Positions 23 to 16,447 of a stretch of DNA of 32,000 nucleotides are shown here, one piece after another. The notes beneath the pieces are model-generated. The model was given only the letters and a program-made list of their open reading frames with translations, made no database searches and had not been told where the DNA came from. How positions within the stretch are numbered: the first letter of the stretch is position 1; each line of letters starts with the position of its first letter. Position numbers and translations under genes: made by a program. Origin of the DNA: Nitratidesulfovibrio vulgaris str. Hildenborough (GTDB lineage Bacteria > Desulfobacterota > Desulfovibrionia > Desulfovibrionales > Desulfovibrionaceae); the NCBI RefSeq assembly GCF_000195755.1, contig NC_002937.3, positions 1,350,001 to 1,382,000 on the forward strand, read 5' to 3'.

Positions 23-1132
23 TCAGTAGTCGTCGTCATCCTGTAGGCTCAATGGACGTTGCTGGGTTGCCGTCTCACGCTGAGCAAAAGCGGCGAACCG
101 CTGCTTGTCCATGGCATGGGTCGCGGCATCGCGCGCGCTGATGACCCCCTGTGACAGAAGGCGCATGATGTCGTCGTCGAGGGTCTGCATCCCTTGTGCC
201 TTGCTCGTCTGGAGGAAACTCGGAATCTGGAAGGTCTTGCTCTCGCGGATAAGGTTGCGCACGGCGGGAACACCCAGCATGATTTCCAGTGCCGCCACAC
301 GTCCCGGTTTGTCGGTGCGTCGCAAGAGCACCTGTGAGATGACCGCCTGAAGCGTCTCGGAGAGGCTTGTCCGTATCTGCGCCTGCGTGTCGGAGGGAAA
401 GACCTCCACGATGCGGTCGATGGTCTTCGCGGCCGAGATGGTGTGCACGGTCGAGAGCACGAGATGCCCGGTCTCTGCGGCTTCAAGCGCGAGCGTGATG
501 GTTTCGAGGTCGCGCATTTCGCCAACGAGGATGATGTCGGGGTCTTCGCGTAACGCACCGCGGAGGGCGGCAGCGAAGCTGCGCGTGTCGCGCCCCACTT
601 CTCGCTGGTTGATGAGGCAGCCGCGTGGCGTGTGCACGAATTCGATAGGGTCTTCGATAGTGATGATATGGTCGCGGCGGTGGCTGTTGGCGTAGTCGAT
701 CATCGCCGCAAGCGTCGTCGACTTGCCGCTGCCGGTCGGCCCCGTGAGCAGGACAAGCCCCTTGGGGAGCATGGCGAGTTCCTGAAGCAGCGGTGGCAGC
801 CCAAGTTCATCGACTGAGAGGATGTGCTGCGGAATTTCGCGAAAGGCCGCGCCAACGCCGCGTTCCTGCCGGAAGAGGTTGGCGCGGTAGCGGGCGATGC
901 CGGGGACGGCATGGCTGAAGTCCACATCGCCGCATTCTTCGAAGAGTGCCAGTTTCGCGGGCGGTGTGATTTCGTGCAGCAGGGCGCGCATCATGTCGTC
1001 TGTGAGGGGCGGGTGGTCGAGCCTTTCAAGCCTGCCATGTACCCGCAACATGGGAACGCACCCCACCGAGAGGTGCAGGTCGGACCCGTGACGCTGATGC
1101 AGTATTTCGAAGAACCTGTCGATGGCGGGCAT
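23..1132 (-). CDS. pilT: Type IV pilus retraction ATPase, PilT family
   Basis: ORF 23..1258 trimmed to the ATG at 1132 (MPAIDRFFEIL...), with AAGGA about 8 nt upstream. Readable motifs: Walker A GPTGSGKST, Asp box IITIEDPIEF, Walker B DIILVGEMRD, His box GHLVLSTVHT, PilT signature AVRNLIRESK. Confidence 0.9.
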   Translation of the reverse strand: MPAIDRFFEILHQRHGSDLHLSVGCVPMLRVHGRLERLDHPPLTDDMMRALLHEITPPAKLALFEECGDVDFSHAVPGIARYRANLFRQERGVGAAFREIPQHILSVDELGLPPLLQELAMLPKGLVLLTGPTGSGKSTTLAAMIDYANSHRRDHIITIEDPIEFVHTPRGCLINQREVGRDTRSFAAALRGALREDPDIILVGEMRDLETITLALEAAETGHLVLSTVHTISAAKTIDRIVEVFPSDTQAQIRTSLSETLQAVISQVLLRRTDKPGRVAALEIMLGVPAVRNLIRESKTFQIPSFLQTSKAQGMQTLDDDIMRLLSQGVISARDAATHAMDKQRFAAFAQRETATQQRPLSLQDDDDY

Positions 1133-1307
1133 AGGATGTCCTTGTGGTTGTCGAAGCTGGCCATGCGCCGTATGGTTCGGGGCCGACGCACGAGAGCCTT
1201 CCGCGGCTGATGGTATGCGAGCGGCAGAAATTAGCAACCCCCATATAATAATAGTCAAAGGTGTCGTGCCACGTTACAGGCGACGCATCCGCGAACGAGG
1301 TTCCCCC

Positions 1308-2111
1308 ATGCACCAGCTACCCCCTGAACTATTGCCGTGGTTCGCTCTTGTGTTCGGTCTCGTGTTCGGCAGCTTCTATAATGTCTGCATCCATCGGTAT
1401 ATCGCGGGCGAATCCATAGTATGGCCTCCTTCACGGTGTCCCAAGTGCGAGACGCGTCTTGGCATACCAGACCTCGTGCCTGTATTCAGTTATCTTTTCC
1501 TGCGCGGAAAGTGCCGTCATTGCGGCAGTCACATCAGTGTGCGCTACCCCGTTGTCGAACTTGCATCGGGTCTGCTGGCCTTTCTTCTGATGCACCGCTA
1601 CGGTCTCACATGGCCTTTTGCCGTGTACTATGTCTTTGGCAGTGCACTGCTGGTGGCTTCGTTCATCGACTTCGAACTCTTCATCCTGCCCGACCCCATC
1701 ACGCTGGGCGGTGCCGTTCTCGCCCCGCCCGCCGCCATCCTGCTACTCGACCTGCCGTGGCAGGCGAGCCTTGCCGGGGCTGTCGTAGGCGGCGGCGGCT
1801 TCTGGCTGGTGGCTTGGCTGTTCCGCAAACTGCGCGGTGTCGAAGGCATGGGCCTCGGGGACGTGAAGCTCATGCTGCTCATCGGCGGGCTGTGCGGCGC
1901 GTCGGCGTTACCTCTCGTTACCATCATCGCGGGCTGTGCCGCGCTGGGGGCGAGTCTGTGGTTTCTCGCCCGACGCGAGAAGGGAACGGACGCGCGAGAG
2001 GTGCAGATTCCGTTCGGGCCCTTCCTCAGTCTTGGTGCGGTGATGCACATGCTCTATGGCCCGGACATCATCCACTGGTGGATAGCCCTTGTCACCGGAC
2101 GGCCCTTCTAG
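1308..2111 (+). CDS. pilD: Prepilin peptidase / N-methyltransferase (A24 family, PilD/GspO)
   Basis: ORF 1122..2111 trimmed to the ATG at 1308 (MHQLPPELLPWFALVFG...). Cys pairs CPKC...CRHC match the methyltransferase region. Catalytic-Asp contexts FIDFELFILPD and GMGLGDVKLM are present. Polytopic membrane profile. Divergent from pilT. Confidence 0.9.
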   Translation: MHQLPPELLPWFALVFGLVFGSFYNVCIHRYIAGESIVWPPSRCPKCETRLGIPDLVPVFSYLFLRGKCRHCGSHISVRYPVVELASGLLAFLLMHRYGLTWPFAVYYVFGSALLVASFIDFELFILPDPITLGGAVLAPPAAILLLDLPWQASLAGAVVGGGGFWLVAWLFRKLRGVEGMGLGDVKLMLLIGGLCGASALPLVTIIAGCAALGASLWFLARREKGTDAREVQIPFGPFLSLGAVMHMLYGPDIIHWWIALVTGRPF

Positions 2112-2418: not shown

Positions 2419-3180
2419 TCAGCGGCGACTCAGGCGTTCGTAGGTCGCCATGACCTTGGTGACATAGTTCTGTGTCTCCGGAATGGCGGGAATGCCTCCG
2501 CAACGTGCCACTCTTTCGGGTCCGGCGTTATAGGCGGCGAGAGCGAGGCGCGTATCGCCAAAGCGCTGCATGAGCGACTTCAGATAGCGCACGCCACCCT
2601 CGACGTTGGCGTCGGGGTCGAAGGGTGCCTCCACCCCAAGGTCCTTCTGCGTACCGGGCATGATTTGCATGAGTCCCTGCGCCCCGGCGGATGACACGGC
2701 GGTGGGGTCGTAGTTCGATTCCACGGCGATGACCGCCTCGACGAGGTTGGGGTCGAGTCCATGGCGTTTGCCGTACTTGTCGGCAAGGCTGTGAATGCCC
2801 CGGGTGCCCACGGTGCGCACGAGGTCGTGGACGCGAAAACGCCCGAACACGCGATACCGTCCGTCGCCGCATGGCCTGTTGGTGAGGTGGACGACACCAT
2901 GTTCGTCGACGTATTTATAGATGGTGACGCGCTCTTCACCCGCGAAGGCGATGCCCGCCCGTCCGGAGTCTCCCCTCCGTCCTGTCTCTTCCGGTAGGAT
3001 GGGCAGTGTGCTTGCAAGCAGGATGAAAGCGGCAGTCAGCGCGGGCAGGGGCTGCCGGCCGGTAGCGCTGCGCTGCCTGAAGCGGCGTAAAAGGCTTCGC
3101 AGCCGGAGGGTTACGGCGTAGTATAAGACGGTGCAGCAACGTGGCACGTGGAGATGTTCGTTGGTCGTGAAAGGCAGCAT
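2419..3180 (-). CDS. Lytic transglycosylase (SLT domain) with N-terminal DUF4124-like module
   Basis: SLT catalytic region AVIAVESNYDPTAVSSAGAQGLMQIMPGT and AYNAGP motif. DUF4124-like IYKYVDEHGVVHLTNRP follows a signal/anchor helix. Start is uncertain: ATG 3180, GTG 3147 or TTG 3204. Confidence 0.8.
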   Translation of the reverse strand: MLPFTTNEHLHVPRCCTVLYYAVTLRLRSLLRRFRQRSATGRQPLPALTAAFILLASTLPILPEETGRRGDSGRAGIAFAGEERVTIYKYVDEHGVVHLTNRPCGDGRYRVFGRFRVHDLVRTVGTRGIHSLADKYGKRHGLDPNLVEAVIAVESNYDPTAVSSAGAQGLMQIMPGTQKDLGVEAPFDPDANVEGGVRYLKSLMQRFGDTRLALAAYNAGPERVARCGGIPAIPETQNYVTKVMATYERLSRR

Positions 3181-3940
3181 GGAGGTTCCCGTGAGTCGTC
3201 GCAATTATGTTTCCCTGACCGGAGTGGCGGTCCTTGCCCTCGCGGGGCTGGTCATCTTCGCGCGTCCGGCCGTTTCGGGCAAGGTCTACATGTGGACGGA
3301 CGAGGCGGGAGTGCGTCACATCACCGACACGCCTCCGCCTGAACAGAAGAGTGGCGTGAAGGAACTCACCGCCAATCCTGCGCCTGCCCGCGAGGCTGCC
3401 CCGGCACCTGCTGCGTCAGCCGCCCCGGGAGGGGCATCGGGAAGCGTCTGGGGCGGTGGTCCGGGGGCCGCTGGCATTCTGCCCGGTCTGCTTTCGGGCC
3501 AGAATCCGGGCGGGGGGGCTGGCAATGCCCCTTCAGGCAGTGCCGGTGGGGCAGGCGATGCCGCCAAGGGGCTTGTGCCTGCCTCGGTTGCCGACGACCT
3601 TGTGCGGAGTGCCTTGCAATCGGCACAGGAGCAAGCCAGAGATGGCAATCTGCCCGGCATGGCTGCGCCGGGTGACGTCATGCCCGGTAGTCCGGTTGCG
3701 GGCACCGAAGCCCCCGCGCGTGCCCCTTCCGCAGCCGACGAAGCGCGTCTCAATGAACTGCGTACCCGCCTCGATGCGCTTGAGAAGGAAAAGGCCGCCT
3801 ACGACCTGCAAGAACGCCGGGCGCGCAGCAAAGGCGACGGCTACGCCAAACAGCGGGCACGCTACCGCCAAAGCGACGTGGAAAAGCGCATCGATGAAGT
3901 GCAGGAGCAGATGCGGTCGCTCACCCCTGCCAGCGAGTGA
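3179..3940 (+). CDS. DUF4124-like secreted/anchored protein with Ala/Gly/Pro-rich linker and C-terminal coiled coil
   Basis: Signal-like SRRNYVSLTGVAVLALAGLVIFARPAVSG, then KVYMWTDEAGVRHITDTPPP (DUF4124-like). A low-complexity A/G/P tract follows, then a charged heptad-like tail (LNELRTRLDALEKEKAAYDLQERR...). Alternative start GTG 3191 sits 4 nt after GGAGG. Confidence 0.65.
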   Translation: MEVPVSRRNYVSLTGVAVLALAGLVIFARPAVSGKVYMWTDEAGVRHITDTPPPEQKSGVKELTANPAPAREAAPAPAASAAPGGASGSVWGGGPGAAGILPGLLSGQNPGGGAGNAPSGSAGGAGDAAKGLVPASVADDLVRSALQSAQEQARDGNLPGMAAPGDVMPGSPVAGTEAPARAPSAADEARLNELRTRLDALEKEKAAYDLQERRARSKGDGYAKQRARYRQSDVEKRIDEVQEQMRSLTPASE

Positions 3941-4390: not shown

Positions 4391-7300
4391 TCACTGCTGT
4401 ATGGGGGGCAGAAATCCCTTGCCGCCACGCAGGTCGAGTTGCAGCCCGAAGTCGTCGAAATAGAAGTTGGTTCCCGTCGGTCCGCTGGTGACGATGGAGA
4501 TACCTTCTGACGGGCTGTAGACTGGGTTGTCAGGGTCATAGGTCGGTGAAAGCAGGTTGGTACTCCGGACAATCGTTCGTGTGCGTTGCGAACCGTTGAT
4601 GTACTCGTTAAGGGCTGAAACGCCCGCCACCCCGGAACCCACCAGCGTCGCGTTCCCGGAGTTCGTCCCACCTGACGTGTTCACGACATCCCATTCTACC
4701 AGAGAGAAATAGTCGGTGGCAGCTTTCCACTGCTCGTAGTCGTCGGGTATCCAGCGCAGTTTGTCATTGTCGCCAAGGCGCGGGTTAGAGCGCCTGTCGG
4801 CGGACGAGAAGCCTCCGTTGCCGCCGGGGGCTTCTGGAGTGCAGGGGTTCGCGTCTCCCGTGCCGTTGCGTTCGGCGTCTGAGTAGTAGACGCGAATGAA
4901 GTTGGTCTTCGCCCCCAGTCCGCCGGTGCCTATGGTCGCGTGACTCACGTTGTTGACTTTCAGGGTCTGGCCGTTGCTGAAGTTCCCCGTCGCCCCTGTA
5001 TCCACGTTGGTCAGCACTAGCCGCCCTGAAGCCGTGCCGGATGTCCAGTCGCCGCTTTCGACGATGGGCTGACCGATGACCCGTGCCTTGGCGCCTGTCT
5101 GGGTGATGATTTCGTCGCCGTAGTTGATACGCAGTATACCGCCTGCCCCGTCAGACCCGCCGCCGTTGGTGAACTGCAATTCCTGTCCTTCGACAAGGCG
5201 CACCAGCAGGGTCGGCCACGCGTCGAGTCTGTATGTGGGGCCATTCTTACTGTAGGTGACAATACCCGATGAACTTCCAAGCTTCTTGTAGGCAAGCCAG
5301 CGAAATTGGCCATTCCTGCGTTCCCAGAGCATGATGGCAGGCCACGAATAGCGGCTCTCTTCATAGAAAATCCACCATCCCTCATCGACAATCTGGTTCA
5401 GGTCTTCATTATCGCCGAAAAGGGGGCCGCCCACATCGGGGTTGGGCGTGGCGTTGTAGCCCGGTACGAGTGAACTGGGAACGTCGTTGGGCCAGTACCA
5501 TCTGTCATTGAGCCATGTACGCCTCTGTCGAAAACGGACGAACGATATCCCGTAGCCGTCAAGGTCGTCTGAACCGCTGTTACGTCCTCTGAAGAGGAGG
5601 CCACCGAAGAAAGCCTTGCCCGAATCCTGATTGACATTGACCTTGAACTGGAGGTCGTAACTTGAGTTGCCGTAAGTGTCGGCCCATCCCCGTGCGAGGT
5701 TGACGTTCGTCCTGCCCCAGTTGAAGAACAGCGAACTCCATTGGTTATCACCCGAAAGCCATGACAGAAAACCGCCAAAGCCGGAGGTGGCAGCCGTCTG
5801 CATCCCGGTAACGCGTAGCGCCCCCCCGGACAGGGCGTGCGTCCCCAGATGGCCTTGACTGGAATCGCCCGTGAACCAGTTGGCGAGGCTTGCGAAATTG
5901 TCCTGATACTGTTCCTTACTGAAACTGCCCCCCCCAAGAATCCAGCCGATGGGCACGTTGTAGATGACCTCGCGCGCCATGCCCCCTGCGGGGATGCCCG
6001 TGGAGTGCAACCGCAGGTACGATTCAAGGGTCACGTCAGAGGCGGAAGACAGCGAGATGTCGGACCACGTCACGCCCTGACCTTCGACGAGGCGCACGTC
6101 TTCAAGGGTGTTTCCGTTCTTGCGCCGGTAGACGTAGGCGATGCGTCCATTGTTGGCGACGGGCCCGCCGCGGACGGTGAACATGCCGTTCACGTTGGGA
6201 AAGGCTGCGGCATGTGCCGAGTTGAGCGTCAGGTCTCCGTTATTGCCCACGGATGTGCTTGTGGGCGTGGCACTCAGGAAGATGTCCGCACCCGTATCGA
6301 TAGGGGGGGAAGGCGTCTGCGTCAGGGTGAAGGTGACCGTGTTGCCCGATGCCTGAATGTTGCTGTAGGTGTAGAAGACTGCGGCGTTGCCGATGCGTAG
6401 CCGCCCCGTGGTGTTGGTGGGCAGTGTGGGGGCGGTGCCGTAGACGCGCGTGACCAGCCGCGTTCCGGTGTTGCTGGTCGCCTCGAACCAGTAGGGCTCT
6501 ATCCCAAGCCGGAATGCCCCTGCATTGTTGGCGAAGGTATAGGTCGAACCGTCCATGGTCTGGAGAAGGTTCTTGCGGGCCTGTTCGTCTCCGGCGGCAA
6601 GGAACATGCTGCCCGCCGCCCCGAAGCCCGACTCCGCGAGATAATAGGCCTGGTCGCCCTGCACGGCGAAATAGCTGTTCTGCGTCGAAGCCGTCATCAT
6701 GGGCACCATGGCTGCGCCGATGACCGAAAAGGCCACGATGGTGACGATGACGCTGATGAGCACAGCACCGCGCGTACGCCCGCCGTTGCGACCATGGTCA
6801 GCGGCGGGCGGGTCGTGGCGCGCAATACAGGTGCCGTCAGACTTGCCGGTGTCGTTGCCGGAGAGATGCCTTGCGGTGGTGGGGCTGTTGTTGTCGGCGG
6901 CAGCCGTCTGTAACGGCGTGGTCTCTCTGTGCAGGGTGCCGCCGTGCAGTGCCGCCCCCAGCATGTGCCCAAGCACGAGAGACAGCATGAACAGGGTACC
7001 AAGGGCTATCGGGGCGTGCACGGCCATGCCGCACAGCGCGGCAAGGGGCGTCAGTATGCCCATGACGGCGGCCCGTACCGTATCATGCCCTTGCAGCATG
7101 TCGGCGAGTCGCGGCCCCACGGTGTAATAGGCGCGTACCAGCATGCGCCCCCCGCCCCATGTGAGCAGAAGCCTGTCACGGAATTCTCGTAGCTGCACCA
7201 CCACCGGGTGGCTTGTGTCACCGCTGGCAGCGGTAGCCACGAAGCAGATGTCGAAGCGTTCCAGAGAAGGCGGCACGGCTTCTGGCAGTGCGCCGCCGCG

Positions 7301-7828
7301 ATTCTCGTTGTTGCGCGGTACGATGCGGTTGCTGAAGGTGCGTGTGGTGCCGCCGGGCGCGGTGAGGGTGAAGGTCACGTCCACGCCGGAGAGGAGTCGC
7401 GGGTCTGTACCAGCCGACCATGTGGCCGTGGAGACATCTTCCTGCCAATAGTTGAGGCTGAAGGCCGTGACGTTGTCGATGAGCGTGTCACCATTCTGTG
7501 CGCCCTGTGCGCCGTTGGCGATGCGAATCTCGCGGGCGTTGGCAACATATTCTATCGACCTGTCGAATTGCCCCGCGCCGCCCGCCCCCACGTTACGCAC
7601 CACAAGACGGGTGGCGCTGCTGTCTGCGGGGACGGCGACCAATTCAATCACTTCGCGGGTGATGCGGTCGAGCGCAAGTTGTGCCTCCATGGCCATCGCA
7701 CCGGCTTCGCGTGCCTGCACGAAGCCGCGCACGCCGCTGACGATGCCCACACCTGCCACGGCAGCGATGACTCCGACGATGAGCAGTACCGCCACGGTCT
7801 CTATGAGTGTGAAGCCCTTGGCCTTCAT
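4391..7828 (-). CDS. Giant (1145 aa) prepilin-type protein: PilW/GspJ-like minor pilin + CFI-box-like hydrophobic module + PilX/GspK-like helix + large beta-rich C-terminal domain
   Basis: Uninterrupted ORF. N-terminus MKAKG|FTLIETVAVLLIVGVIAAV has a class III signal with Glu+5. AGGAGA RBS overlaps the upstream stop. See findings for domain boundaries. Confidence 0.85.
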   Translation of the reverse strand: MKAKGFTLIETVAVLLIVGVIAAVAGVGIVSGVRGFVQAREAGAMAMEAQLALDRITREVIELVAVPADSSATRLVVRNVGAGGAGQFDRSIEYVANAREIRIANGAQGAQNGDTLIDNVTAFSLNYWQEDVSTATWSAGTDPRLLSGVDVTFTLTAPGGTTRTFSNRIVPRNNENRGGALPEAVPPSLERFDICFVATAASGDTSHPVVVQLREFRDRLLLTWGGGRMLVRAYYTVGPRLADMLQGHDTVRAAVMGILTPLAALCGMAVHAPIALGTLFMLSLVLGHMLGAALHGGTLHRETTPLQTAAADNNSPTTARHLSGNDTGKSDGTCIARHDPPAADHGRNGGRTRGAVLISVIVTIVAFSVIGAAMVPMMTASTQNSYFAVQGDQAYYLAESGFGAAGSMFLAAGDEQARKNLLQTMDGSTYTFANNAGAFRLGIEPYWFEATSNTGTRLVTRVYGTAPTLPTNTTGRLRIGNAAVFYTYSNIQASGNTVTFTLTQTPSPPIDTGADIFLSATPTSTSVGNNGDLTLNSAHAAAFPNVNGMFTVRGGPVANNGRIAYVYRRKNGNTLEDVRLVEGQGVTWSDISLSSASDVTLESYLRLHSTGIPAGGMAREVIYNVPIGWILGGGSFSKEQYQDNFASLANWFTGDSSQGHLGTHALSGGALRVTGMQTAATSGFGGFLSWLSGDNQWSSLFFNWGRTNVNLARGWADTYGNSSYDLQFKVNVNQDSGKAFFGGLLFRGRNSGSDDLDGYGISFVRFRQRRTWLNDRWYWPNDVPSSLVPGYNATPNPDVGGPLFGDNEDLNQIVDEGWWIFYEESRYSWPAIMLWERRNGQFRWLAYKKLGSSSGIVTYSKNGPTYRLDAWPTLLVRLVEGQELQFTNGGGSDGAGGILRINYGDEIITQTGAKARVIGQPIVESGDWTSGTASGRLVLTNVDTGATGNFSNGQTLKVNNVSHATIGTGGLGAKTNFIRVYYSDAERNGTGDANPCTPEAPGGNGGFSSADRRSNPRLGDNDKLRWIPDDYEQWKAATDYFSLVEWDVVNTSGGTNSGNATLVGSGVAGVSALNEYINGSQRTRTIVRSTNLLSPTYDPDNPVYSPSEGISIVTSGPTGTNFYFDDFGLQLDLRGGKGFLPPIQQ

Positions 7829-7838
7829 GGTTCGTCTC

Positions 7839-8522
7839 CTAGCGCGAGAACAATGTGGTGGCCTGCTGGCCGTTCACTTCGATGGTCACGCGCAGCATGT
7901 CGCCGTTGGCGTCGGCTTGTTCGGCAAAGGCGTTGGTGCCTGTGTTCACGAAACGGATGCGCCGATTCACCACCACGGTATAGGTTCCATAGGTGGTACT
8001 CACCGTGCTGCCCGCAGCACCGATACGCCCGCTGATGATGCCGATGGGGTTCTCTTCGGTGGCCCACAGGTTGCGGTAGTCCGCGGTCATGGACTCGATG
8101 GCATCGGTGAGGCGCGACTGTGCGTCAGAACGCACAAGGCTTTCGGCGCTGCCGCGCAGTGCGGTACCTGTCATGGTGAGCAGCATGGTGGACATGATGG
8201 CGGCAAGGATGATGGTGACGATGATTTCAATGAGTGTGAAGCCGCCCTGGGCATGACGGGAAGACGCGGACGTGAAGGCGGCAGGGCGAGTGGATTGGGC
8301 GATGCTGTCTGCAGGCGGTGGTGCCGGTGCTGCATGGTTGAAGGCAGAACATACGGCAGAGGTTGCGGAATGGGCGGTAGGGGCAGCAGGCTGGCACAAC
8401 GTCTGGCACTCCGCGTGGCCTGCCATATGGCGTGTCGCGCAATGCGAAGAATACCCCGGAGTATGGCGTGCCCCATGGCGCGAGACTGGGTATGGTAAAT
8501 GGCGGCAGGGCTGACGTTTCAT
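7839..8522 (-). CDS. Minor pilin (prepilin-type N-terminal cleavage/methylation domain; PilV/GspI-J-like) with unusually long leader
   Basis: GG|FTLIEIIVTIILAAIMSTML at aa 134-136 of ORF 7839..8645. The ATG at 8522 forms an ATGA overlap with the upstream stop. Nearer in-frame starts are only ATG 8426 and TTG 8399, so the leader is at least 52 aa. Confidence 0.7.
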   Translation of the reverse strand: MKRQPCRHLPYPVSRHGARHTPGYSSHCATRHMAGHAECQTLCQPAAPTAHSATSAVCSAFNHAAPAPPPADSIAQSTRPAAFTSASSRHAQGGFTLIEIIVTIILAAIMSTMLLTMTGTALRGSAESLVRSDAQSRLTDAIESMTADYRNLWATEENPIGIISGRIGAAGSTVSTTYGTYTVVVNRRIRFVNTGTNAFAEQADANGDMLRVTIEVNGQQATTLFSR

Positions 8523-9088
8523 CGCATGAACCCCGTATTGCGGACGATGACGATGTTCTCCGTGGCACCCTGAAAACCCACCGTCACGGTGACATTGGCT
8601 GTACGCAGGGTGGTTCCTGACGCATCGGAACACGGACGTCCCCATTCGTCAAAGGAGATGGTGGTGGCGGCGGTGGTGAAGGTGGCACCCTGTGGCAGTG
8701 TGATGGTGCCGCCCGCTTCACCGGGCATGGTCACGCGGGTGTTGACGTTGCCACCGCGAAAGACCGCATAGGTCGTGCCGGAGATGATGCGTACCCCGAA
8801 CACTTCGTCACTGTTCATGGAACGGGTGCGCGCATAGCGGATGTTGTTGCGAACACTGGCGGCGATGGCACCCACCTCGCCCGCGCGCTGGTCGAACATG
8901 CGTTCGGCGGCGACAGCCGTTATCACAGCCATGATGACAAGTACGGCGATGATCTCGACGAGCGTAAAGCCTCGCTGACGCGAGGCATGATCGGCCCTCG
9001 AGGGGCGGCGTGTGCTGCTGGCGATGGCGGAAGGGGGCGAAGCCCTTCCGGGAGCGCACGGCGTGTTTTCGGGGCGTATGCTGTTCAT
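8519..9088 (-). CDS. Minor pilin, FimT/FimU/GspH-like, with long leader
   Basis: QRG|FTLVEIIAVLVIMAVITAVAAERMF. I found no in-frame ATG/GTG/TTG between the ATG at 9088 and the cleavage motif, so the leader is at least 40 aa. GTG 9133 is an alternative start. Confidence 0.7.
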   Translation of the reverse strand: MNSIRPENTPCAPGRASPPSAIASSTRRPSRADHASRQRGFTLVEIIAVLVIMAVITAVAAERMFDQRAGEVGAIAASVRNNIRYARTRSMNSDEVFGVRIISGTTYAVFRGGNVNTRVTMPGEAGGTITLPQGATFTTAATTISFDEWGRPCSDASGTTLRTANVTVTVGFQGATENIVIVRNTGFMR

Positions 9089-9232
9089 GCTGCGACCTGT
9101 ATGGGGCGGTGCCCATCTGCGAGGCGTGCGCACGGGGCTTGTGTGATGCCGGGACGTATGACGCCTTCGTGGTGCGGGACGTACTGACGTGCCATGTTCA
9201 AGCCTGCGCCGCCGTGGGCGTGGGGGCGCCTC

Positions 9233-10513
9233 TTATTTCTGGTTGAATTGCCGCACGACATCCTCAAGCGGCATGTCGTCGGTGACGGTGACGTACCCGT
9301 CGTACTCGTCAGAGGCAAGGGGCGGCAGGGCATGGGCAGGCATGACGTCGTCCATGCCGTTCATGCCGCTGTCATTCATGAACCGCACAGGGCGGGCGTG
9401 GCGTGCCTGTTCAGCCGCATAGTGGGTCAGACCCAGACCGTGGTCGACGAGGGGGCTCTCATAGTCTTCGCCGCCCGCCTCTTCAGGCGCGGGGCGAAAC
9501 ACGTTGGAAGGTGCCGAAAGCCGTTGCTGCCGCTCGAGGAATTCTGTTCGGTAGGCGTCGGCGGTGAACATGCCGTCACCCCTGCCCATCTCCATGAGGC
9601 TGGTGAGTTGGGCGAACTTGCCTTCGCGCACGAGCATCCGCACCGGGTTGTTACCCACAAGGATGGAAAGCACGGGCACACGGAAGCGCGCCGTGGGGTG
9701 CATCTGCAACTGCTGTACGACGATGGCGTTGAGCGAAGACGAAAGCTGATGCCGCACAAGGTCTTGTGCCTCGAGGGGGAAGGCGTTGCACAGCCGGTAG
9801 AGGGCTTCTTCGGGCGATGACGAGTGCAGCGAGGCGATGATGAGGTGTCCCGATTCGGCGGCACTGAGGGCAAGGCGGATGGTCTCTGCCTCGCGCAACT
9901 CGCCCACCAGCACCACGTCGGGGTCTTCGCGCAGCACGTCAAGCAGCCCGCGTTCGAACGAGGGAAAATGTCTGCCCAATTCACGCTGTTCGACGAACGA
10001 CTTCTTGGAGGCGAAGCGGTATTCGATGGGGTCTTCCAGCGTGATGATGTGGGCGGGGCGGGTACGGTTTATCTCGTCCAGCATGGCAGCCATGGTGGTT
10101 GTCTTGCCGCTGCCGGTGGCACCGCAGACCAGAATAAGCCCCGACCGCAACCGGGTGAATTCTTCGAGAGAGGGGTGCAGGTTGAGGTGGGCAAGGCTGG
10201 GGATGTGCCCCGCCAGAAGGCGCACCGCAAGGCTGAGACCCCGCGTGGTGTTGAAGATGTTCAGGCGCACCCGTATGCCCGCCACCGAGTGGGCGAAGTC
10301 GACCGACCAGCGGCGGCGCAGGATGTCGCGGCGGTAGGGTGTGAGCAGAAGCCGGGCGAGGTCGTCAAGTTGCGCGGTTGTGAAGGTGACATCGGGCAAC
10401 ATGCCGATGTCGCCGTCTTTGCGGTACACCACCGGGTGGTTGCCTGTCATGTGCAGGTCGGACCAGCCATAGGCGACAGCCTGCTGGATGATGGTGGAGA
10501 ATCGCTGAAGCAT
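9233..10513 (-). CDS. Divergent PilT/PilU-like hexameric ATPase with ~90-aa acidic C-terminal tail
   Basis: Walker A GATGSGKTTT, Asp box IITLEDPIEY, Walker B DVVLVGELRE, His box GHLIIASLHSSS, variant signature PVRMLVREGK. GAGGTG RBS precedes the ATG at 10513. Confidence 0.85.
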   Translation of the reverse strand: MLQRFSTIIQQAVAYGWSDLHMTGNHPVVYRKDGDIGMLPDVTFTTAQLDDLARLLLTPYRRDILRRRWSVDFAHSVAGIRVRLNIFNTTRGLSLAVRLLAGHIPSLAHLNLHPSLEEFTRLRSGLILVCGATGSGKTTTMAAMLDEINRTRPAHIITLEDPIEYRFASKKSFVEQRELGRHFPSFERGLLDVLREDPDVVLVGELREAETIRLALSAAESGHLIIASLHSSSPEEALYRLCNAFPLEAQDLVRHQLSSSLNAIVVQQLQMHPTARFRVPVLSILVGNNPVRMLVREGKFAQLTSLMEMGRGDGMFTADAYRTEFLERQQRLSAPSNVFRPAPEEAGGEDYESPLVDHGLGLTHYAAEQARHARPVRFMNDSGMNGMDDVMPAHALPPLASDEYDGYVTVTDDMPLEDVVRQFNQK

Positions 10514-10580: not shown

Positions 10581-11006
10581 CTACGGGCAAGACGGAAGGG
10601 TTACTTGTGCTGTCAGAGGGGTTGCACTGACATCAGCGTTCGTAAAGGCCACGTCGATTGTGTCACCCGCGTCCGTCGCAAAGTTGAAGGCTGTTGGGTT
10701 GGTCGTCCAGCCACTGAGGGTGCCTGCAGCTCCTTCCCAGAGTGCGGCTTCACGAGTGTCCATGCCTGCAAGAGCGGTAGCGCAGACACCGTTTGCAGTA
10801 ATAAGTTCACGAGCAAAAAGCTGGTTGATTCGGGCTTGGAGTTCCGCTGCTGTCGCATCAGCTGCACGCTGCGCAGCGTTAGTTTGAAGCTGGAAATACC
10901 TAGGTACTGCCACTGCAGCCAGAATGCCAAGAATAACGAGCACGGCGATGATTTCGATGAGGGTGAAACCCTTCTGCCCCTTCCGCTGTTCATGCAATCT
11001 CTTCAT
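10581..11006 (-). CDS. pilA: Major type IV pilin (141 aa precursor)
   Basis: ORF trimmed to the ATG at 11006 with an AGGAGA RBS. MKRLHEQRKGQKG|FTLIEIIAVLVILGILAAVAVPRYF has a 13-aa leader and Glu+5. Two Cys (GVCATA...LPSCP) could form the C-terminal disulfide loop. It sits directly after pilB-pilC. Confidence 0.85.
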   Translation of the reverse strand: MKRLHEQRKGQKGFTLIEIIAVLVILGILAAVAVPRYFQLQTNAAQRAADATAAELQARINQLFARELITANGVCATALAGMDTREAALWEGAAGTLSGWTTNPTAFNFATDAGDTIDVAFTNADVSATPLTAQVTLPSCP

Positions 11007-11118
11007 GGTCTTCTCCTGAATCGGTTGTTGTGTCGTTTGTTCGGTTACGGCAGTGCCGCACCCCCCTCCACTGACACCGGGTGCGCGGGCACACCGGCGA
11101 TACTCCCATTCGTTCATC

Positions 11119-12345
11119 CTAGCGCTTGCCAGCCATCTGCGTGAGGTCCCACATGGGCATGAAGATGGCGAGGGCGAAGAAGCCCACCACCGCCGCGAGG
11201 GCGACGATGAGCACAGGACCGATGGCTTCCGCCATGCCCGCCACGGCGTATTCCACTTCTTCGTCGTAGTGTCGTGCCACGTCATTGAGCATGGCGTCGA
11301 GACTGCCCGATTCCTCCCCGATGGCGACCATGTTCACCACCAGAGGGGTGAAGAAGCGGGCGGTGCGCAAAGGTTCGGCAATGCCCCTGCCTTCACGCAA
11401 CTGGTCTTGAATGCGGGTGAATTCGCGGGCGATGGCTGCGTTGCCGATGGTGTTGTTCAGTACGTCCAGCGCATCCAGCACTGAAACGCCGCTGGATTGC
11501 AAGATGGCGAAGATGGAGGCGAAACGCGCCATGACCGACTTCTGGATGACGGGACCCACCCCCGGCAGTCGCAGCACGAGTCTGTCGCGCCAGTACCTGC
11601 CGTCTTCGGTGCGTACCCAGTACTTGTAGGCGACGGTGCCCGCCACCACCACCGCCAGCACCACATACCAGTAGGTAGAAAAAACATAATGCATACCGAT
11701 GGCTATCTTGGTGGGCCACGGAAGGGTGATTCTGGCTTGCGAGAAGATGAGCACGAATTTGGGAATGACGAGGTTGAGCAATACGAAGAATGCCACTGCC
11801 AGCGCACCCATGACCATCTTGGGGTAACGCAGGGCGGACTTGATGTCTGAACGTATCTTGTGCTCATGTTCCAGCAGGTAGACGAGGCGGTCCATCACCT
11901 CGCCCAGTGCGCCAGAGGCTTCGCCCGCCCGCATCATGGAACAATAGAGTTCACTGAACACCTTGGGGTGGGCGCGGAATGCGTCGTACAGTGTGGCGCC
12001 ACCCATGATGGCTTGCGACATCTCGGCGGCGATGGCTTTCAACCGCTTGTGTTCGGTCTGATTCTGCAACACCTGCAACAACTGGGTGATGGGAATGCCC
12101 GCCTGAAAGAGCGTGCGAAACTGCTTGGTGAAGAGAATGAGTTCCTTGGGGGGAATGGGTGAAAGCGCATCCGCCAGTGCACCCAGCCCCAGCGAAAAGC
12201 CGCCGCCCGCGCCCGCCTTCACCTCCAGCGGTACATAGCCCCGGCTGAACAGGATGGCACGCGCCGCTTCGGTGCTTTCGGCGTCGATGACGCCTTCCAT
12301 CTTCACCCCGTTCTCGTTGCGGGCGGTATAGCTGAAGCTTGCCAT
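11119..12345 (-). CDS. pilC: Type IV pilus platform protein PilC (GspF family)
   Basis: 408 aa with two repeated GspF-type halves, each a cytoplasmic domain plus TM segments. The start lies 3 nt after the pilB stop. Confidence 0.9.
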   Translation of the reverse strand: MASFSYTARNENGVKMEGVIDAESTEAARAILFSRGYVPLEVKAGAGGGFSLGLGALADALSPIPPKELILFTKQFRTLFQAGIPITQLLQVLQNQTEHKRLKAIAAEMSQAIMGGATLYDAFRAHPKVFSELYCSMMRAGEASGALGEVMDRLVYLLEHEHKIRSDIKSALRYPKMVMGALAVAFFVLLNLVIPKFVLIFSQARITLPWPTKIAIGMHYVFSTYWYVVLAVVVAGTVAYKYWVRTEDGRYWRDRLVLRLPGVGPVIQKSVMARFASIFAILQSSGVSVLDALDVLNNTIGNAAIAREFTRIQDQLREGRGIAEPLRTARFFTPLVVNMVAIGEESGSLDAMLNDVARHYDEEVEYAVAGMAEAIGPVLIVALAAVVGFFALAIFMPMWDLTQMAGKR

Positions 12346-12348
12346 GGG

Positions 12349-14070
12349 CTACCCCTGCAACATGACGGCGGTCGCCGCCTCTTCGACGGTGGTGATGCCA
12401 GCCCGTACCTTGAGGGCGGCGTCCTGCACGAGGGTACGCATCAGCCCCGCTTCGATGGCGGTGTTGGCGATGACCTGCGTGGACGAACGGCGTACCACAA
12501 GTTCCTGTATCTCTGGCACCATGGGCAGAATCTCGAACAGCCCCGTACGCCCGCGGTAGCCCGTGTGGGCGCAATGGAAGCAGCCGCGCCCCTTGAGGAA
12601 GCGCGACCTGCCGTCGTGCCCCTCTGCGGGGTCGATGCCGAAGGCAGCCAGCGCGGCATGGGGCGGGTCATAGGGTTCGGCGCAGTTGGGGCACACGCGG
12701 CGCACCAGACGTTGCGCGAACGAGGCGAGCATGACCGATGAGACGAGAAACGGTTCGATACCCATGTCGATGAGGCGTGTGACCGCACCCGCCGCGTCGT
12801 TGGTGTGCAGGGTGGAGAGCACAAGGTGACCGGTGAGGGCCGCCTGTACCGCGATAGAGGCGGTTTCGGCGTCACGTATCTCACCCACCATCACCACGTC
12901 GGGGTCCTGACGCAGGATGGAACGCAGACCGCTGGCGAAGGTCATGCCCGCCTTGCGGTTGAGTTGCACCTGACGGATGCCGCCGATGCGGTATTCCACC
13001 GGGTCTTCAAGGGTGATGATGTTGATTTCCGGCGTGTTGATGCTCTTGAGGATGGCGTACAGGCTGGTGGATTTGCCGCTGCCCGTGGGGCCGGTGGAGA
13101 GTATCATGCCGTAGGGCTTGTGGATGACCCGCTTGATGACGGTGTGGTCGGTCTGTTCCATGCCCAGCTGGTCGAGGGTGTAGTCGCGTCCGCTCATGTC
13201 GAGAAGACGCAAGACCATGTTCTCACCGTAGATGGTGGGAATGCTGGACACGCGCACGTTGATTTCGCGGTTGTCGAGATTCATGGTGAAGCGACCGTCT
13301 TGCGGCACGCGGGTGACGGCGATGTCCATGTTGCCCAGAATCTTCAGGCGCGAGACCATGGCGGGGGCCACGTTCTTGGGCGGGGCGGGGGCTTCGCGCA
13401 GCTTGCCGTCGATGCGGAAGCGCACCTGTCTGGAGTCTTTCTCGGGGCTGATGTGCACGTCGCTGGCGCCCTCGCGCACCGCCTGTGCCAGAATGGAGTT
13501 GACCAGCCGCACCACGGGGGCGAGGTCTGCCTGACTGGCGAGTTCTTCGAGGGCCACGTCGCGGTCTTCGGTCTCGGTCTTGGCTGCGGTGGCGGTGTGC
13601 AGGTCGCCGAGGCTCTCTATCACACCGTCGAGATTGGTGAACATGCCGTAGACGGCGCTGAACAGCTGGTTGAATTCCTGCTCTGTGCAGATGACAGGCT
13701 CGACTTCGCTGTTGGTGGCGAATTCGATGGTGTCGCAGGCGTCGATGTCCAGCGGGTCGGTCATCGCCACCACAAGCACATGCCCGTGCTGTTGCAGCGG
13801 TACGGCGTTGCACTTCTGCGCCGTCTCAAGCGGCAGGCGTTCCGCCATGTTGAGACTCAGCGGAAAGTCCTGCGGGGAGTAGCGGTCGATACGCAGCTGG
13901 CGACTCACGGTGGCGACGACGTCGCCCTCGCGGCACACGCCCGTCTTGATGAGGAACTGGCCAAGCCTGAGCCCGCTCTTCTTGTGGTCGCGCAGGGCCA
14001 CCTTGAGCTGCTCGTCGCTTATGATGCCGGCTTCTACCAGCAGTTCTCCCAACCTCACTCGCTTACGCAC
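12349..14070 (-). CDS. pilB: Type IV pilus assembly ATPase PilB (GspE family)
   Basis: N-terminal T2SSE_N/MshEN-like RLGELLVEAGIISDEQLKVAL. Walker A GPTGSGKST, Asp box IITLEDPVEY, Walker B DVVMVGEIRD, His box GHLVLSTLHTN, tetracysteine CPNC...CFHC. GTG start at 14070; 14058 and 14052 are also possible. Confidence 0.92.
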   Translation of the reverse strand: MRKRVRLGELLVEAGIISDEQLKVALRDHKKSGLRLGQFLIKTGVCREGDVVATVSRQLRIDRYSPQDFPLSLNMAERLPLETAQKCNAVPLQQHGHVLVVAMTDPLDIDACDTIEFATNSEVEPVICTEQEFNQLFSAVYGMFTNLDGVIESLGDLHTATAAKTETEDRDVALEELASQADLAPVVRLVNSILAQAVREGASDVHISPEKDSRQVRFRIDGKLREAPAPPKNVAPAMVSRLKILGNMDIAVTRVPQDGRFTMNLDNREINVRVSSIPTIYGENMVLRLLDMSGRDYTLDQLGMEQTDHTVIKRVIHKPYGMILSTGPTGSGKSTSLYAILKSINTPEINIITLEDPVEYRIGGIRQVQLNRKAGMTFASGLRSILRQDPDVVMVGEIRDAETASIAVQAALTGHLVLSTLHTNDAAGAVTRLIDMGIEPFLVSSVMLASFAQRLVRRVCPNCAEPYDPPHAALAAFGIDPAEGHDGRSRFLKGRGCFHCAHTGYRGRTGLFEILPMVPEIQELVVRRSSTQVIANTAIEAGLMRTLVQDAALKVRAGITTVEEAATAVMLQG

Positions 14071-14358: not shown

Positions 14359-15933
14359 CTAGTTGACGCTGGTTTCCTCGCGGTAGGGCAGGATGGCGGG
14401 CGTGATGAATATCAGCACGTCCTCAAGCTTGTTCGCCTTCGAGTCGTTGCCGAACAGCGCGCCGATGCCCTCTACATCCTGCAGGTAGGGCAGGCCCTGT
14501 CTGCGGGTGCTGCTGCGTTCCTTGGTGAGGCCGGAGATGACCACCGTCTCGCCGTCCTGCACGATGAGCGTCGTCTCGGTCTGCTTCTTGATGATGAAGG
14601 GGTTGCCCTCAACCGTGCGGGTAAGGTCGACCTCGTCCTTCTTGACCTGCACCTTGAGCTTGAGGTTGGACTCGTCGATGACGTGCGGGGTGATTTCAAG
14701 GCGCAGCACCGCGTCTTCGAACTTCACTTCGCGGTCGCCCTGTGCGTTGGTGGATACGTAAGGTACCTTCTCGCCGTTCTCGGTGAACGCCATCTGGTTG
14801 TCCAGCGTGGAGATGGAGGGCGACGAGAGGATGTTGAGCTTGCCATTGTCCTGCAGGGCCGAAAGCTGCACTTCGAGCATGTTGCCGCCGATGGTGCCGA
14901 ACATGAGGCCCAGCGAACCCATGGCCGTCTTGCCCGCCTTGTTCACCGGGAAGTTCATGCCGAAGCCCTGCCCGCTGAGGCCGCCCGGCGGGATGACAGG
15001 TACGCCGCCTCCTGCCTGCGGGTCTGTGGGCTTGGTGGGCCCCGAACCGCCGGGGGTTACCCACATGCGGTTGCCGTCGCCCATGTTGCCGGAACGACCC
15101 ACGCCACCCCACTGGATGCCAAGGTCGCGCGCGGTGTCGCGCGTGGCTTCGACGATGTGCGCCTTGAGCAGTATCTGTGCGCGGGGCTTGTCGAGGTTGT
15201 TGACGAGCGTGATGATCTTGGAAAGGTCGTCCTCAACGGCCTGTACGATGAGCGAGTTGGTATGCGTGTCCACGACCACGGCGCCCACGGGCTTGTTCTG
15301 TTCGTCCTTGCTGAGGAAGCCTTCAAGGTTCTTCTTGAGTTCAGCAGCTTCGGCGTAACGCACCTCGATGACCGAGGTCACCAGCGGCCCCACCTTGCGG
15401 CCCTTGAGTTGCTGCGCCATGCGTTGCGTCTCGAGCAGTTCGCGTTCGACCTCTGCCTTCTTGTCGGCGAGGGTCATCACCTGAATGAGCTCGCCACGCC
15501 ATGCGAAATCGAGCGCGTTGCTGGCGAGAATGCCCTTGAACACGTCTTCCCACGGCACCCTGTTCACGTTGATGCTGGCCGTGCCCTTGACGCCGGGGCT
15601 GACGATGATGCTGGTGTTGGCGGCGGCGGCAAGACTGCGAAGGGCCACGCCCACGTCGACATTGTGCAGTTTGAGGGTGACGGGCATCTGCGGCAGCGGG
15701 CGCTTCTGCTCTTCTTGCTTGGCGGTGACCTCTTCCTGACGCAGCAGCGTCTTGGGCTTGACGTCGCGCACCACCTTGGGCGGCGAGAAGCCCGTGGAAT
15801 TGCTGGCGAGGCTCTGCCACTTGCTGAAGAATGGGTCGGTCTCGTCCTTCTTCTTGCTGGCGCAACCTGCGACGAGCGCGACGGCGAGTAGAGCCGTGAA
15901 CGTGGTCATCAGTATCGTGTTCGTGAAGCGCAT
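14359..15933 (-). CDS. pilQ: Secretin PilQ/GspD family, predicted lipoprotein (liposecretin)
   Basis: ORF 14359..16392 trimmed to the ATG at 15933: MRFTNTILMTTFTALLAVALVAGC with lipobox VAGC. An N0/STN-like domain and N1 domain are present. C-terminal secretin core: GLPYLQDVEGIGALFG...VLIFITPAIL. Confidence 0.88.
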   Translation of the reverse strand: MRFTNTILMTTFTALLAVALVAGCASKKKDETDPFFSKWQSLASNSTGFSPPKVVRDVKPKTLLRQEEVTAKQEEQKRPLPQMPVTLKLHNVDVGVALRSLAAAANTSIIVSPGVKGTASINVNRVPWEDVFKGILASNALDFAWRGELIQVMTLADKKAEVERELLETQRMAQQLKGRKVGPLVTSVIEVRYAEAAELKKNLEGFLSKDEQNKPVGAVVVDTHTNSLIVQAVEDDLSKIITLVNNLDKPRAQILLKAHIVEATRDTARDLGIQWGGVGRSGNMGDGNRMWVTPGGSGPTKPTDPQAGGGVPVIPPGGLSGQGFGMNFPVNKAGKTAMGSLGLMFGTIGGNMLEVQLSALQDNGKLNILSSPSISTLDNQMAFTENGEKVPYVSTNAQGDREVKFEDAVLRLEITPHVIDESNLKLKVQVKKDEVDLTRTVEGNPFIIKKQTETTLIVQDGETVVISGLTKERSSTRRQGLPYLQDVEGIGALFGNDSKANKLEDVLIFITPAILPYREETSVN

Positions 15934-15952
15934 TGATATTTCCCCGCTGCTG

Positions 15953-16447
15953 CTACAGGTCGTCGCCGGTATACGGCAGTTCGCGTTCGGTTCCGTCTTC
16001 GGCGGCTGCCAGCACGACCTTGCCGGGCGTGATGGACTTGACCACATAGCCGCTGTCGGCCACGGCCTCTCCGGTGCGGTATTCAAGCCCGTCGACAATG
16101 GCGAAGACCATGTTCCCCACGGCAAGGTAGCCCGTGTAGGCCATGGTCTGCGCCGAGTCGGTTCCGCCCGGCCCCGCCATGCTTCCACTGCGTACGGTGG
16201 GTGCCGGCGGCAGCCTGAAGGGGTTGCCGCTGGCCTGGCGCACCGCTGCGTCGAGCACATACAGCTGGCTGGGCGAGACAGGCACTTCGGCAAGCGCCTT
16301 CTGGACGTTCTGAACCACGGTAGATGCCGGGGTGGTCTGCACCGCCTTGGGCGTGACACCTCCACCGCCGGGCATGGCGAACGAGAGCGCACCCACGACG
16401 GCGACCGCTCCCATCACGCCCAAAAGTATCTGTTCCCTGCGGGTCAT
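15953..16447 (-). CDS. PilP/GspC(HR-domain)-like inner-membrane alignment protein
   Basis: ORF trimmed to the ATG at 16447 (MTRREQILLGVMGAVAVVGAL, one TM). C-terminal beta-rich YTGYLAVGNMVFAIVDGLEYRTGEAVADSGYVVKSITPGKVVL. Position is between the pilO-like gene and pilQ. Confidence 0.55.
   Translation of the reverse strand: MTRREQILLGVMGAVAVVGALSFAMPGGGGVTPKAVQTTPASTVVQNVQKALAEVPVSPSQLYVLDAAVRQASGNPFRLPPAPTVRSGSMAGPGGTDSAQTMAYTGYLAVGNMVFAIVDGLEYRTGEAVADSGYVVKSITPGKVVLAAAEDGTERELPYTGDDL

Follow-up and report, generated by a model that had tools for sequence, protein, structure and literature searches.

A giant minor-pilin gene of Nitratidesulfovibrio vulgaris Hildenborough with an internal CFI-box module and a candidate second prepilin-peptidase site

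A fused gene and its separate counterparts

In the current work, a stretch of 32,000 nucleotides (nt) from the genome of Nitratidesulfovibrio vulgaris str. Hildenborough (NC_002937.3, positions 1,350,001-1,382,000), hereafter referred to as the window, was analyzed with respect to a giant open reading frame (ORF) located at 4391-7828 on its minus strand, all coordinates being those of the window with position 1 as its first letter. This ORF lies within a type IV pilus / type II secretion-like gene cluster on the same strand, specifies a protein whose N-terminus reads MKAKGFTLIE (a prepilin-type signal) and, as judged from the sequence comparisons presented below, arose naturally through in-frame fusion of the two genes at the end of a minor-pilin operon. 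Its two pilin parts, named half 1 and half 2, are separated by a module of the CFI-box type, while half 2 is preceded by a putative second cleavage site for prepilin peptidase (site 2). The features of the fused gene are listed below, with amino acid (aa) positions referring to the translated ORF and a slash marking a predicted cut.

4391-7828, minus strand: whole ORF, a fused GspJ/PilW-like and PilX/GspK-like minor pilin (ATG start, 1145 aa, 122 kDa)
7739-7828, minus strand: first class III (prepilin) signal, aa 1-30, with leader MKAKG, predicted cut G5/F6 and Glu at +5 (TIGR02532; G5, F6 and E10 invariant in 78/78 family members)
7304-7813, minus strand: pilin body of half 1, aa 6-175, GspJ/EpsJ-like fold with a conserved P-R-N motif (aa 171-173) at its end (AlphaFold, Foldseek)
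7085-7246, minus strand: soluble part of the CFI box, aa 195-248, Cys195-Phe196 and three predicted helices (NF041770, AlphaFold)
7016-7084, minus strand: H1, aa 249-271, first hydrophobic helix of the CFI module (AlphaFold, insertion energy)
6935-7012, minus strand: H2, aa 273-298, second hydrophobic helix and likely the sole membrane crossing of the module, from periplasm to cytoplasm (AlphaFold, insertion energy)
6770-6934, minus strand: linker, aa 299-353, predicted to be disordered and probably cytoplasmic (model confidence, charge)
6764-6769, minus strand: G354/A355, predicted second prepilin-peptidase site (Gly in 78/78 members, leaders of stand-alone orthologues)
6596-6769, minus strand: alpha-1 helix of half 2, aa 354-411, of GspK/PilX style, without Glu at +5 (AlphaFold, insertion energy)
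4394-6766, minus strand: predicted mature half 2, aa 355-1145, 85 kDa, with beta-rich adhesin-like domains and GFLPPIQQ as its last residues (AlphaFold, BLASTP)

In this translation C195 corresponds to nt 7246-7244, G354 to nt 6769-6767 and A355 to nt 6766-6764. The cysteines of the 1145-aa protein are found at positions 195, 266, 334 and 996, and no second Cys is conserved besides that at position 195.

A homologue search covering approximately 5.8 billion proteins returned 107 clusters, and the family alignment employed in this work comprises 78 diverse members being 22-91% identical to the window protein. In 102 of the 107 clusters the prepilin motif, Cys-Phe-[Val/Ile] and the AYYLAESG motif of half 2 occur in this order on a single chain, the remaining five being truncated or unrelated, and most of the 107 clusters measure 1000-1450 aa and span the whole query. 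Among the matches listed, the fused gene is present in Nitratidesulfovibrio (closed genomes included), Smithella, Syntrophales, Syntrophobacterales, Syntrophobacteraceae, metagenome-assembled genomes (MAGs) of Desulfatibacillaceae and other Desulfobacterota. Columns that are invariant in the 78-member alignment include G5, F6, E10, C195, F196, A200 and G354. The names given to these homologues in databases (PulJ/GspJ, PilW, PilX or 'CFI-box-CTERM, partial') each cover one piece only.

Versions of this locus with two separate genes exist elsewhere, and long open frames may arise by chance in GC-rich DNA, so that two genes could in principle have been merged artificially through loss of a stop codon, a frameshift or misassembly. 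Against such an artefact stand the occurrence of the same fusion in the 102 clusters, originating from many samples and including closed genomes of 4.26 and 4.30 Mb, the coding-type G+C content at third codon positions of 0.75 all along the reading frame, and conservation that continues unbroken across the joint. On these sequence grounds the artefact reading is already effectively refuted and we regard its probability as negligible, while the fused architecture and its origin from two genes are considered nearly certain.

Half 1 carries the G-F-T-L-I-E prepilin N-terminus, which is the only site of the protein matching TIGR02532 (20.5 bits versus a cutoff of 16.3). In an AlphaFold model of the whole protein, built on the family alignment and with a predicted local distance difference test (pLDDT) score of 81.8, this half consists of a helix (8-61), a beta-sheet (strands within 74-169) and a low-confidence spacer (188-194). 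A Foldseek search with this full model retrieved chains B, D, F and H of 2RET (probability 1.00, template modelling score 0.54-0.60, 148-173 aligned columns), which we take to be EpsJ on the basis of their length of 155-159 residues. Since these matches vanish when half 2 alone is modelled and searched, the GspJ-like part corresponds to half 1. The curated GspJ models did not recognize half 1, PF11612 (T2SSJ) remaining below its threshold (16.3 bits versus a cutoff of 28, aa 105-165) and TIGR01711 giving no match. An earlier, sequence-only reading of this ORF had proposed that the first 354 residues would act as a giant leader for what follows; this was rejected, because residues 1-190 constitute a conserved pilin with an EpsJ-like fold and its own invariant G-F-x-x-x-E.

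Half 2 starts with a helix of 58 residues, which in the AlphaFold model begins exactly at G354 and has an insertion energy of -1.65. When modelled alone, this half attained a pLDDT of 87 and a predicted template modelling score of 0.71. Among its relatives, MAM-like, Reelin-B or CBM5/12 domains are present, as would be expected of an adhesin. A profile search of sequences from the PDB returned N-terminal pilin helices only.

The two halves also exist as separate genes, and two types of such split loci were found. In three metagenome contigs (L002, L003 and L004) the orthologue of half 1, gene A (P0113, P0129 and P0189), is 298-313 aa long, includes the CFI box and terminates 8-15 residues past the hydrophobic stretch, and thus represents a minor pilin that genuinely ends in a CFI-box-CTERM; this agrees with the suggestion of the sequence-only reading that an ancestral gene ended at this module. 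Residues 1-304 of the window protein match gene A of L002 with a BLASTP E value of 7e-65. Gene B starts 3 nt after gene A, with AAAGGAG ahead of it, in L002 and overlaps gene A in L003 and L004; in all three contigs it has its own Shine-Dalgarno sequence and a short leader whose final Gly aligns to G354 (MLKNQRG/AVLIAV, MTSAIISNQKG/SLLIGL and MSHKHERG/AILLTL), followed by an AYYLAESG-type sequence. The second type, without a CFI box, is represented by a Syntrophales MAG (L011), in which the J-like gene of 183 aa stops right after P-R-N, and in which the 797-aa gene B, reading ..RLRQRG/SVLITL.., matches half 2 from the Arg-Gly to its C-terminal GFLSPIVQ (BLASTP 2e-45). Loci like L011 indicate that the module is dispensable for the working of the J/K pair. 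J-like genes that stop at P-R-N are also present in several other genomes. The locus thus occurs in four states: as two genes without a CFI box (the classical arrangement), as two genes of which gene A carries the box, and as a fused gene with either the full box (as in the window) or a reduced joint.

The linker of one subgroup (P0079-P0093, and also L001 1-150) reads ..RRS-IF-MKKS[IM]A[TI]HxEKG/S, in which the part from the Met onward has the appearance of a fossil leader with its start codon, left over from a formerly separate second gene. The ATG of this fossil leader misled the gene caller on one truncated contig: P0106 (854 aa), considered as a candidate stand-alone half 2, was rejected because its contig begins 84 nt before the called ATG with the frame open, so that it represents a truncated fused gene. 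In the split locus L003, and in this contig only, the gene pair is followed by a gene (5710-6756) whose product, a membrane protein of 348 aa, gave weak VKOR and DsbA-like hits.

The CFI-box module and membrane topology

The sequence-only reading had recognized a CFI-box-like module at aa 195 and beyond. A search with the hidden Markov model of this family bore this out: NCBIfam NF041770 (CFI_box_CTERM) matches aa 195-262 with 72.1 bits (curated cutoff 40; E value 2.4e-20, far beyond chance) over model positions 1-68 of 69, and thus as a complete domain, whereas a Pfam scan of the protein found no Pfam model for the module. The signature of the family, Cys-Phe-[Ile/Val]-Ala-Thr-Ala-Ala, reads CFVATAA in the window protein (aa 195-201), with the Cys, the Phe and A200 invariant. 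AlphaFold predicts (pLDDT approximately 77-87) helices at 196-200, 208-221 and 225-245, followed by H1 at 249-271 and H2 at 273-298; the hydrophobic stretch of some 45 residues, which had been placed after aa 195-297, is therefore really inside that range. The box is not at the extreme C-terminus of the window protein, since approximately 850 residues follow the module. Foldseek searches with the full model and with half 2 returned nothing informative for the CFI module.

A scan of 1.84 billion cluster representatives with aa 190-312 as query identified 10,642 proteins with E values of at most 0.001. Classification of the 136 top hits that were new gave 94 canonical CFI proteins, 26 pilin fusions, four proteins of a short pilin form and nine with an internal box, while three fell outside the motif pattern used and were left unclassified. 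In the canonical proteins the distance from the Cys to the protein end has a median of 108 aa, and the box, H1 and H2 are followed by a tail of about 10 aa with about four Lys/Arg and no Asp/Glu, such that these proteins end 8-15 aa after H2. The window protein matches this layout of box, H1, H2 and basic tail and accordingly carries a complete module. In most fused pilins 114-117 residues separate the Cys from the Gly at position -1 of site 2, a spacing which indicates that one and the same segment serves as the basic tail of the module and as the second leader. Thirteen of the 78 family members possess a reduced joint, in which the 52-81 residues from Cys to Gly retain CF[VI]xT and contain a single hydrophobic helix, located ahead of the basic stretch and the Gly.

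The Cys-Phe is kept invariant even in members without the rest of the box, no second Cys is conserved, and a spacer precedes the motif, this being a flexible segment in the window protein and poly-Gly in canonical CFI members. Taken together, these features of the alignment point to the Cys-Phe motif as a site of further processing or modification. Two other interpretations were rejected: a lipobox at Cys195 is unlikely given that the preceding residue is variable and that no hydrophobic region lies before it, and an intein or Hint-type element is, in our judgement from the alignment, not compatible with a module that is too short and that has no conserved His, Ser or Glu. No candidate CFI-processing enzyme, including any sorting protease of the CPBP family, was found among the ORFs of the window, and we know of no cognate enzyme for the CFI box. 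Full-text searches for 'CFI-box' and 'CFIATAA' found no mention in the literature searched.

The CFI module was also observed as an internal joint in unrelated proteins, where a signal peptide and a further domain come directly after it. In P0108 the module is directly followed by a lipoprotein signal peptide (..VFVSGC/S), in P0139, P0144 and P0151 by Sec-type signal peptides and then a second module, and in P0149, P0199 and P0107 by a Sec signal and then a barrel-like domain; in some of these internal-CFI proteins a second CFI-box-CTERM closes the chain. From their sequences, they look like two exported proteins made as one chain. At several loci (L026 977-2030; L027 3966-5956; also L028 and L029) a canonical CFI-box-CTERM gene is immediately followed by a gene for a small outer-membrane beta-barrel (PF13505), in one case with a 4-nt overlap, and it is this gene pair that seems to be fused in P0149, P0199 and P0107. 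The pairing is not universal, as a response regulator gene follows P0124 and a PilC/GspF-like gene precedes P0164.

The topology of the window protein and its relatives was assessed by means of Kyte-Doolittle windows, the additive Hessa insertion scale and charge counts. On the Hessa scale insertion is always predicted for both pilin helices, is marginal for H2 and is not predicted for H1, the energy of the latter being +3.6 in the window protein, with medians of +2.0 (family) and +6.3 (89 canonical CFI proteins). On these predictions, H1 probably lies at the membrane surface without crossing it. The linker that follows H2 is predicted to be disordered (pLDDT below 50 over aa 296-354). Family linkers measure 11-60 residues with a median of 19, that of the window protein and its closest relatives (P0001 and P0002) being the longest (60 aa), and they are unconserved apart from the Gly. 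A low-complexity linker insert, TTPLQTAAADNNSPTTARHLSGNDTGKSDGTCIARHDPPAADH, is present in the window protein, P0001 and P0002, and is missing from relatives being 79-87% identical to the query. The linker had been described as basic, which applies to the cluster at its end (GRNGGRTRG), while aa 299-353 as a whole are only weakly so, with seven Lys/Arg versus six Asp/Glu; in the family, the linker is net positive in 76 of the 78 members, with a median charge of +4.

A cytoplasmic position of the linker, and with it a topology of three membrane crossings, is what we infer from several indirect lines, in line with an odd number of crossings by the hydrophobic module, the case considered in the sequence-only reading: the net-positive charge of the linker, the joints with one helix, the insertion energies of H1, and the signal peptides located after CFI modules in other proteins, which need a cytoplasmic N-side and hence place the CFI tail in the cytoplasm. 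If, instead, H1 and H2 were to form a two-pass hairpin, for which the hydrophobic stretch of 45-50 residues and the two helices with a kink at residue 272 in the AlphaFold model could be cited, the linker and G354 would be periplasmic, PilD would have no access, and the second pilin helix would run from outside to inside. Such an arrangement would expose the tail rich in Arg and Lys on the outside and confine the adhesin-like half of 85 kDa to the cytoplasm, even though the orthologues of this half are exported prepilins, which itself argues for a cytoplasmic linker. It is furthermore at odds with the insertion energy of H1, which is below 0 in 0 of the 89 canonical CFI proteins, with the single hydrophobic helix in the joint of 13 members, and with the Sec and lipoprotein signal peptides that need a cytoplasmic N-side when following a CFI module elsewhere. 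The hairpin is consequently considered very unlikely.

The candidate second prepilin-peptidase site

A class III signal consists of a hydrophilic leader ending in Gly, followed by approximately 21 mainly hydrophobic residues (PMC8179133). Site 2 reads ..GRTRG/AVLISVIVTIVAFSVIGAAMVPMM and displays the basic leader, the Gly and the hydrophobic helix of such a signal. The junction RTRG/AVLISV is located at nt 6764-6769, exactly where the sequence-only reading had placed it, and its assignment to the GspK/PilX style was likewise upheld across the 78 members, in which position -1 is Gly in 78/78 and position -2 is Lys or Arg in 65/78, followed by Ser, Ala or Asn at +1, Val or Ile at +2, Leu at +3, Ile, Leu or Val at +4, and Gly, Ser or Ala, never Glu, at +5. 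Minor pilins of the GspK and PilX type are likewise not known to carry Glu at +5. In addition, RTRG/AVLISV aligns residue for residue with the leader/mature junctions of the stand-alone second genes (L002, L003, L004 and L011), where the site is N-terminal, while in the window protein it lies 354 residues into the chain. No in-frame ATG, GTG or TTG codon is present between M289 and G354, and half 2 is therefore not separately translatable with a normal short leader.

On the basis of these sequence features, the 1145-residue protein is probably a precursor that is cut into two pilins. Half 1 (aa 1-194) would be a GspJ/PilW-like prepilin to which a CFI-box-CTERM module, from aa 195 to about 303, is added C-terminally; the basic tail of this module would bring the chain back to the cytoplasm and continue into the second class III leader, ..R-T-R-G354/A355-V-L-I-S-V. 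The chain would thus cross the inner membrane three times, the two pilin helices and H2 serving as the crossings, and its two globular parts would be located in the periplasm. PilD would then cut at G5/F6 and at G354/A355, giving rise to a J-like piece of 36.6 kDa (aa 6-354) and a K/X-like piece of 85 kDa (aa 355-1145), so that two tip subunits would always be supplied in equal numbers (1:1) and as neighbours in the membrane, where they could form the tip together with the H-like and I-like subunits. Half 1 would keep its CFI anchor, which may be removed or modified by a further step at the Cys-Phe, or may leave it tethered.

Cleavage of site 2 by PilD, which the sequence evidence leads us to favour with moderate confidence, has to be weighed against a number of observations. 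The window protein has no match at site 2 to the curated prepilin models TIGR02532 and PF07963, and N_methyl matches in the family are weak, being present in five of 26 N-termini with a best E value of 0.029. The models for PilX_N (PF14341; 10.8 bits versus a cutoff of 25.5) and GspK (NF037980; 12.5 bits versus 130) are also not reached by half 2 of the window protein; their sub-threshold alignments begin at the first positions of the models, at the Arg-Gly, and PilX_N is the top family in only six of 26 relatives, with a best E value of 0.0022. Among the top 50 Foldseek matches of the full model and of half 2 no GspK or PilX chain is present, the matches of half 2 being generic small beta-barrels only. 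The loop that would be offered to the peptidase usually counts only 11-20 residues, and the literature searched offered no example of a prepilin peptidase that cuts downstream of another membrane helix. The topology itself is derived from simple hydrophobicity and charge counts, and H1 and H2, at 45-50 residues, could in principle form the hairpin discussed above. After both cuts half 1 would be anchored at both ends, and since H2 would hold its C-terminus, this tether would bar it from the fibre, making entry hard without a further step. Finally, the fused state has persisted, and the link itself could be functional.

Several of these points would equally suit a protein with the same architecture and topology in which site 2 is left uncut, the second helix acting as a signal-anchor of a single three-pass inner-membrane protein, which could serve as a membrane-held platform that nucleates or limits the fibre and in which G354 would be kept for structure, for example as a helix cap or in a tight turn. 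Such a protein would accord with a fusion kept in more than 100 clusters, with the short loop from H2 to the second helix (median 19 aa), with internal prepilin-peptidase sites being without precedent in the literature searched and with the scores of site 2 below those of the curated prepilin models. It would not readily account for a Gly at -1 that is the lone invariant residue of a variable linker and is accompanied by Lys or Arg at -2, a pattern that prepilin peptidases require, nor for stand-alone orthologues with an ordinary short leader ending at the aligned Gly, nor for the fossil leader in the linker of one subgroup, and we consider it rather unlikely. Processing at site 2 is thus retained as the preferred interpretation. 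The wider proposal, in which the protein is a bacterial membrane polyprotein whose internal class III cut frees two tip pilins, in which the CFI box is a reusable joint by which two exported proteins can be produced on a single chain, and in which the Cys-Phe marks a second processing step that frees or lipid-anchors the upstream protein, is advanced tentatively, as its chances in our view are slightly short of even.

Gene neighbourhood, related systems and significance

The genes of the pilus cluster, and the prepilin peptidase gene, which lies on the other strand at a distance of 2.3 kb from the giant gene, are as follows.

14359-16413, minus strand: secretin
12349-14070, minus strand: PilB-type ATPase
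11119-12345, minus strand: PilC-type platform protein
within 10581-11285, minus strand: pilin
9233-10513, minus strand: PilT-type ATPase
within 8519-9133, minus strand: GspH-like minor pilin, directly in the minor-pilin run upstream of the giant gene
within 7839-8645, minus strand: small GspI/PilV-like minor pilin, between the GspH-like gene and the giant gene
1122-2111, plus strand: prepilin peptidase (PilD; Pfam A24_N_bact 1.3e-33, Peptidase_A24 1.4e-15), with its true start probably inside this ORF

The minor-pilin genes of the window have the order H - I - [J~K], an order also present in L003 and L011 and the same as that of canonical minor-pilin operons (H-like, small I/V-like, J-like, K/X-like). 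The mechanically called ORFs 7839-8645, 8519-9133 and 10581-11285 extend 50-130 codons upstream of their G-F-T-L-[IV]-E motifs and are overextended, the true pilin starts thus being much nearer to these motifs. Downstream of the giant gene are genes for a DUF4124 protein, an SLT transglycosylase, a second secretion-type ATPase and the prepilin peptidase. This layout (giant gene, DUF4124, SLT, PilD and ATPase) recurs in the Nitratidesulfovibrio locus L008, and no neighbour gene is conserved between the Nitratidesulfovibrio and Smithella loci of the fused gene. Besides PilB, the cluster specifies two PilT/secretion-type ATPases (23-1258 and 9233-10513, minus strand), and DUF4124 occurs in two proteins, namely that encoded by 3131-3940 (plus strand) and, at its N-terminus, the SLT protein at 2419-3204. 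The window outside the pilus cluster contains housekeeping genes, and a low-GC stretch between the pilus cluster and ftsH harbours a selenocysteine tRNA gene (19503-19596, minus strand; ARAGORN; Rfam RF01852, 81 bits).

Among known systems, the closest parallels are the tip minor pilins GspJ-GspK and PilW-PilX, whose adjacent genes (H-I-J-K or fimU-pilV-pilW-pilX) are arranged as in the window, and with which the window protein shares the EpsJ-like half 1 and the GspK/PilX-type N-terminus of half 2. GspK, GspI and GspJ form a heterotrimer at the tip of the pseudopilus (PMC8179133). These proteins are separate subunits, whereas in the window a single polypeptide is joined by a membrane module; the likeness of half 2 to GspK/PilX is undetectable beyond the N-terminal helix, and the J-like half bears a C-terminal membrane anchor, a feature undescribed in the pilin literature searched. 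Modular type IV pilins, such as Streptococcus sanguinis PilB and PilC, combine one class III signal with one pilin module (PMC8179133, PMC9934059). A large functional module, probably at the fibre tip, is common to them and to the window protein, the latter differing in its two pilin-type helices and two candidate cut sites with membrane helices in between.

With respect to the module, the layout of Cys-Phe, helical box, H1, H2 and basic tail is that of CFI-box-CTERM (NF041770), which in its canonical form is terminal and found on Sec-exported surface proteins, while in the window protein it is internal and attached to a pilin. MYXO-CTERM sequences are tripartite, Cys-containing C-terminal sorting signals that are cut by myxosortase (PMC11980579; bioRxiv 10.1101/2023.06.07.544157). 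Like the CFI module, signals of this type have an invariant Cys, a membrane helix and a cytoplasmic tail rich in Arg, and a connection to type II secretion-type machinery, seen for MYXO-CTERM, is likewise shared. Their short motif, however, abuts the helix, which in the full CFI box is separated from the Cys by about 55 conserved residues of helical structure and by one more hydrophobic helix. The MYXO-CTERM layout of Cys motif, one helix and Arg-rich tail is thus not that of the window protein and is seen in the 13 relatives with a reduced joint. By analogy, processing at the CFI box may resemble MYXO-CTERM cleavage in spirit. A conceptual parallel for the internal cut is mitochondrial Arg5,6 (PMC8734313), a tandem precursor with an internal targeting signal that is processed by the presequence peptidase MPP. 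Here, too, a peptidase that removes signals also acts on a further copy of its site within the chain, by which two proteins made together become separated; compartment, enzyme class and substrate differ, and the comparison is an analogy only. Neither fused minor pilins nor internal prepilin-peptidase sites are described in the literature searched.

A family in which a J-like and a K/X-like subunit are hard-wired to each other would bear on the ratio and order in which the tip complex is assembled, and would constitute a natural experiment on the stoichiometry and co-insertion of two subunits. Cleavage at site 2, if true, would extend the substrate range of prepilin peptidase to internal sites, and half 1 would, likewise if true, be the first pilin observed to have a C-terminal sorting-type anchor. 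For the CFI box, which is represented by more than 10,000 clusters at 50% identity and for which no mention was found in the literature searched, the fusions provide an experimental handle, as they suggest that the tail of the module is cytoplasmic and that the module has repeatedly been coupled to a downstream exported partner.

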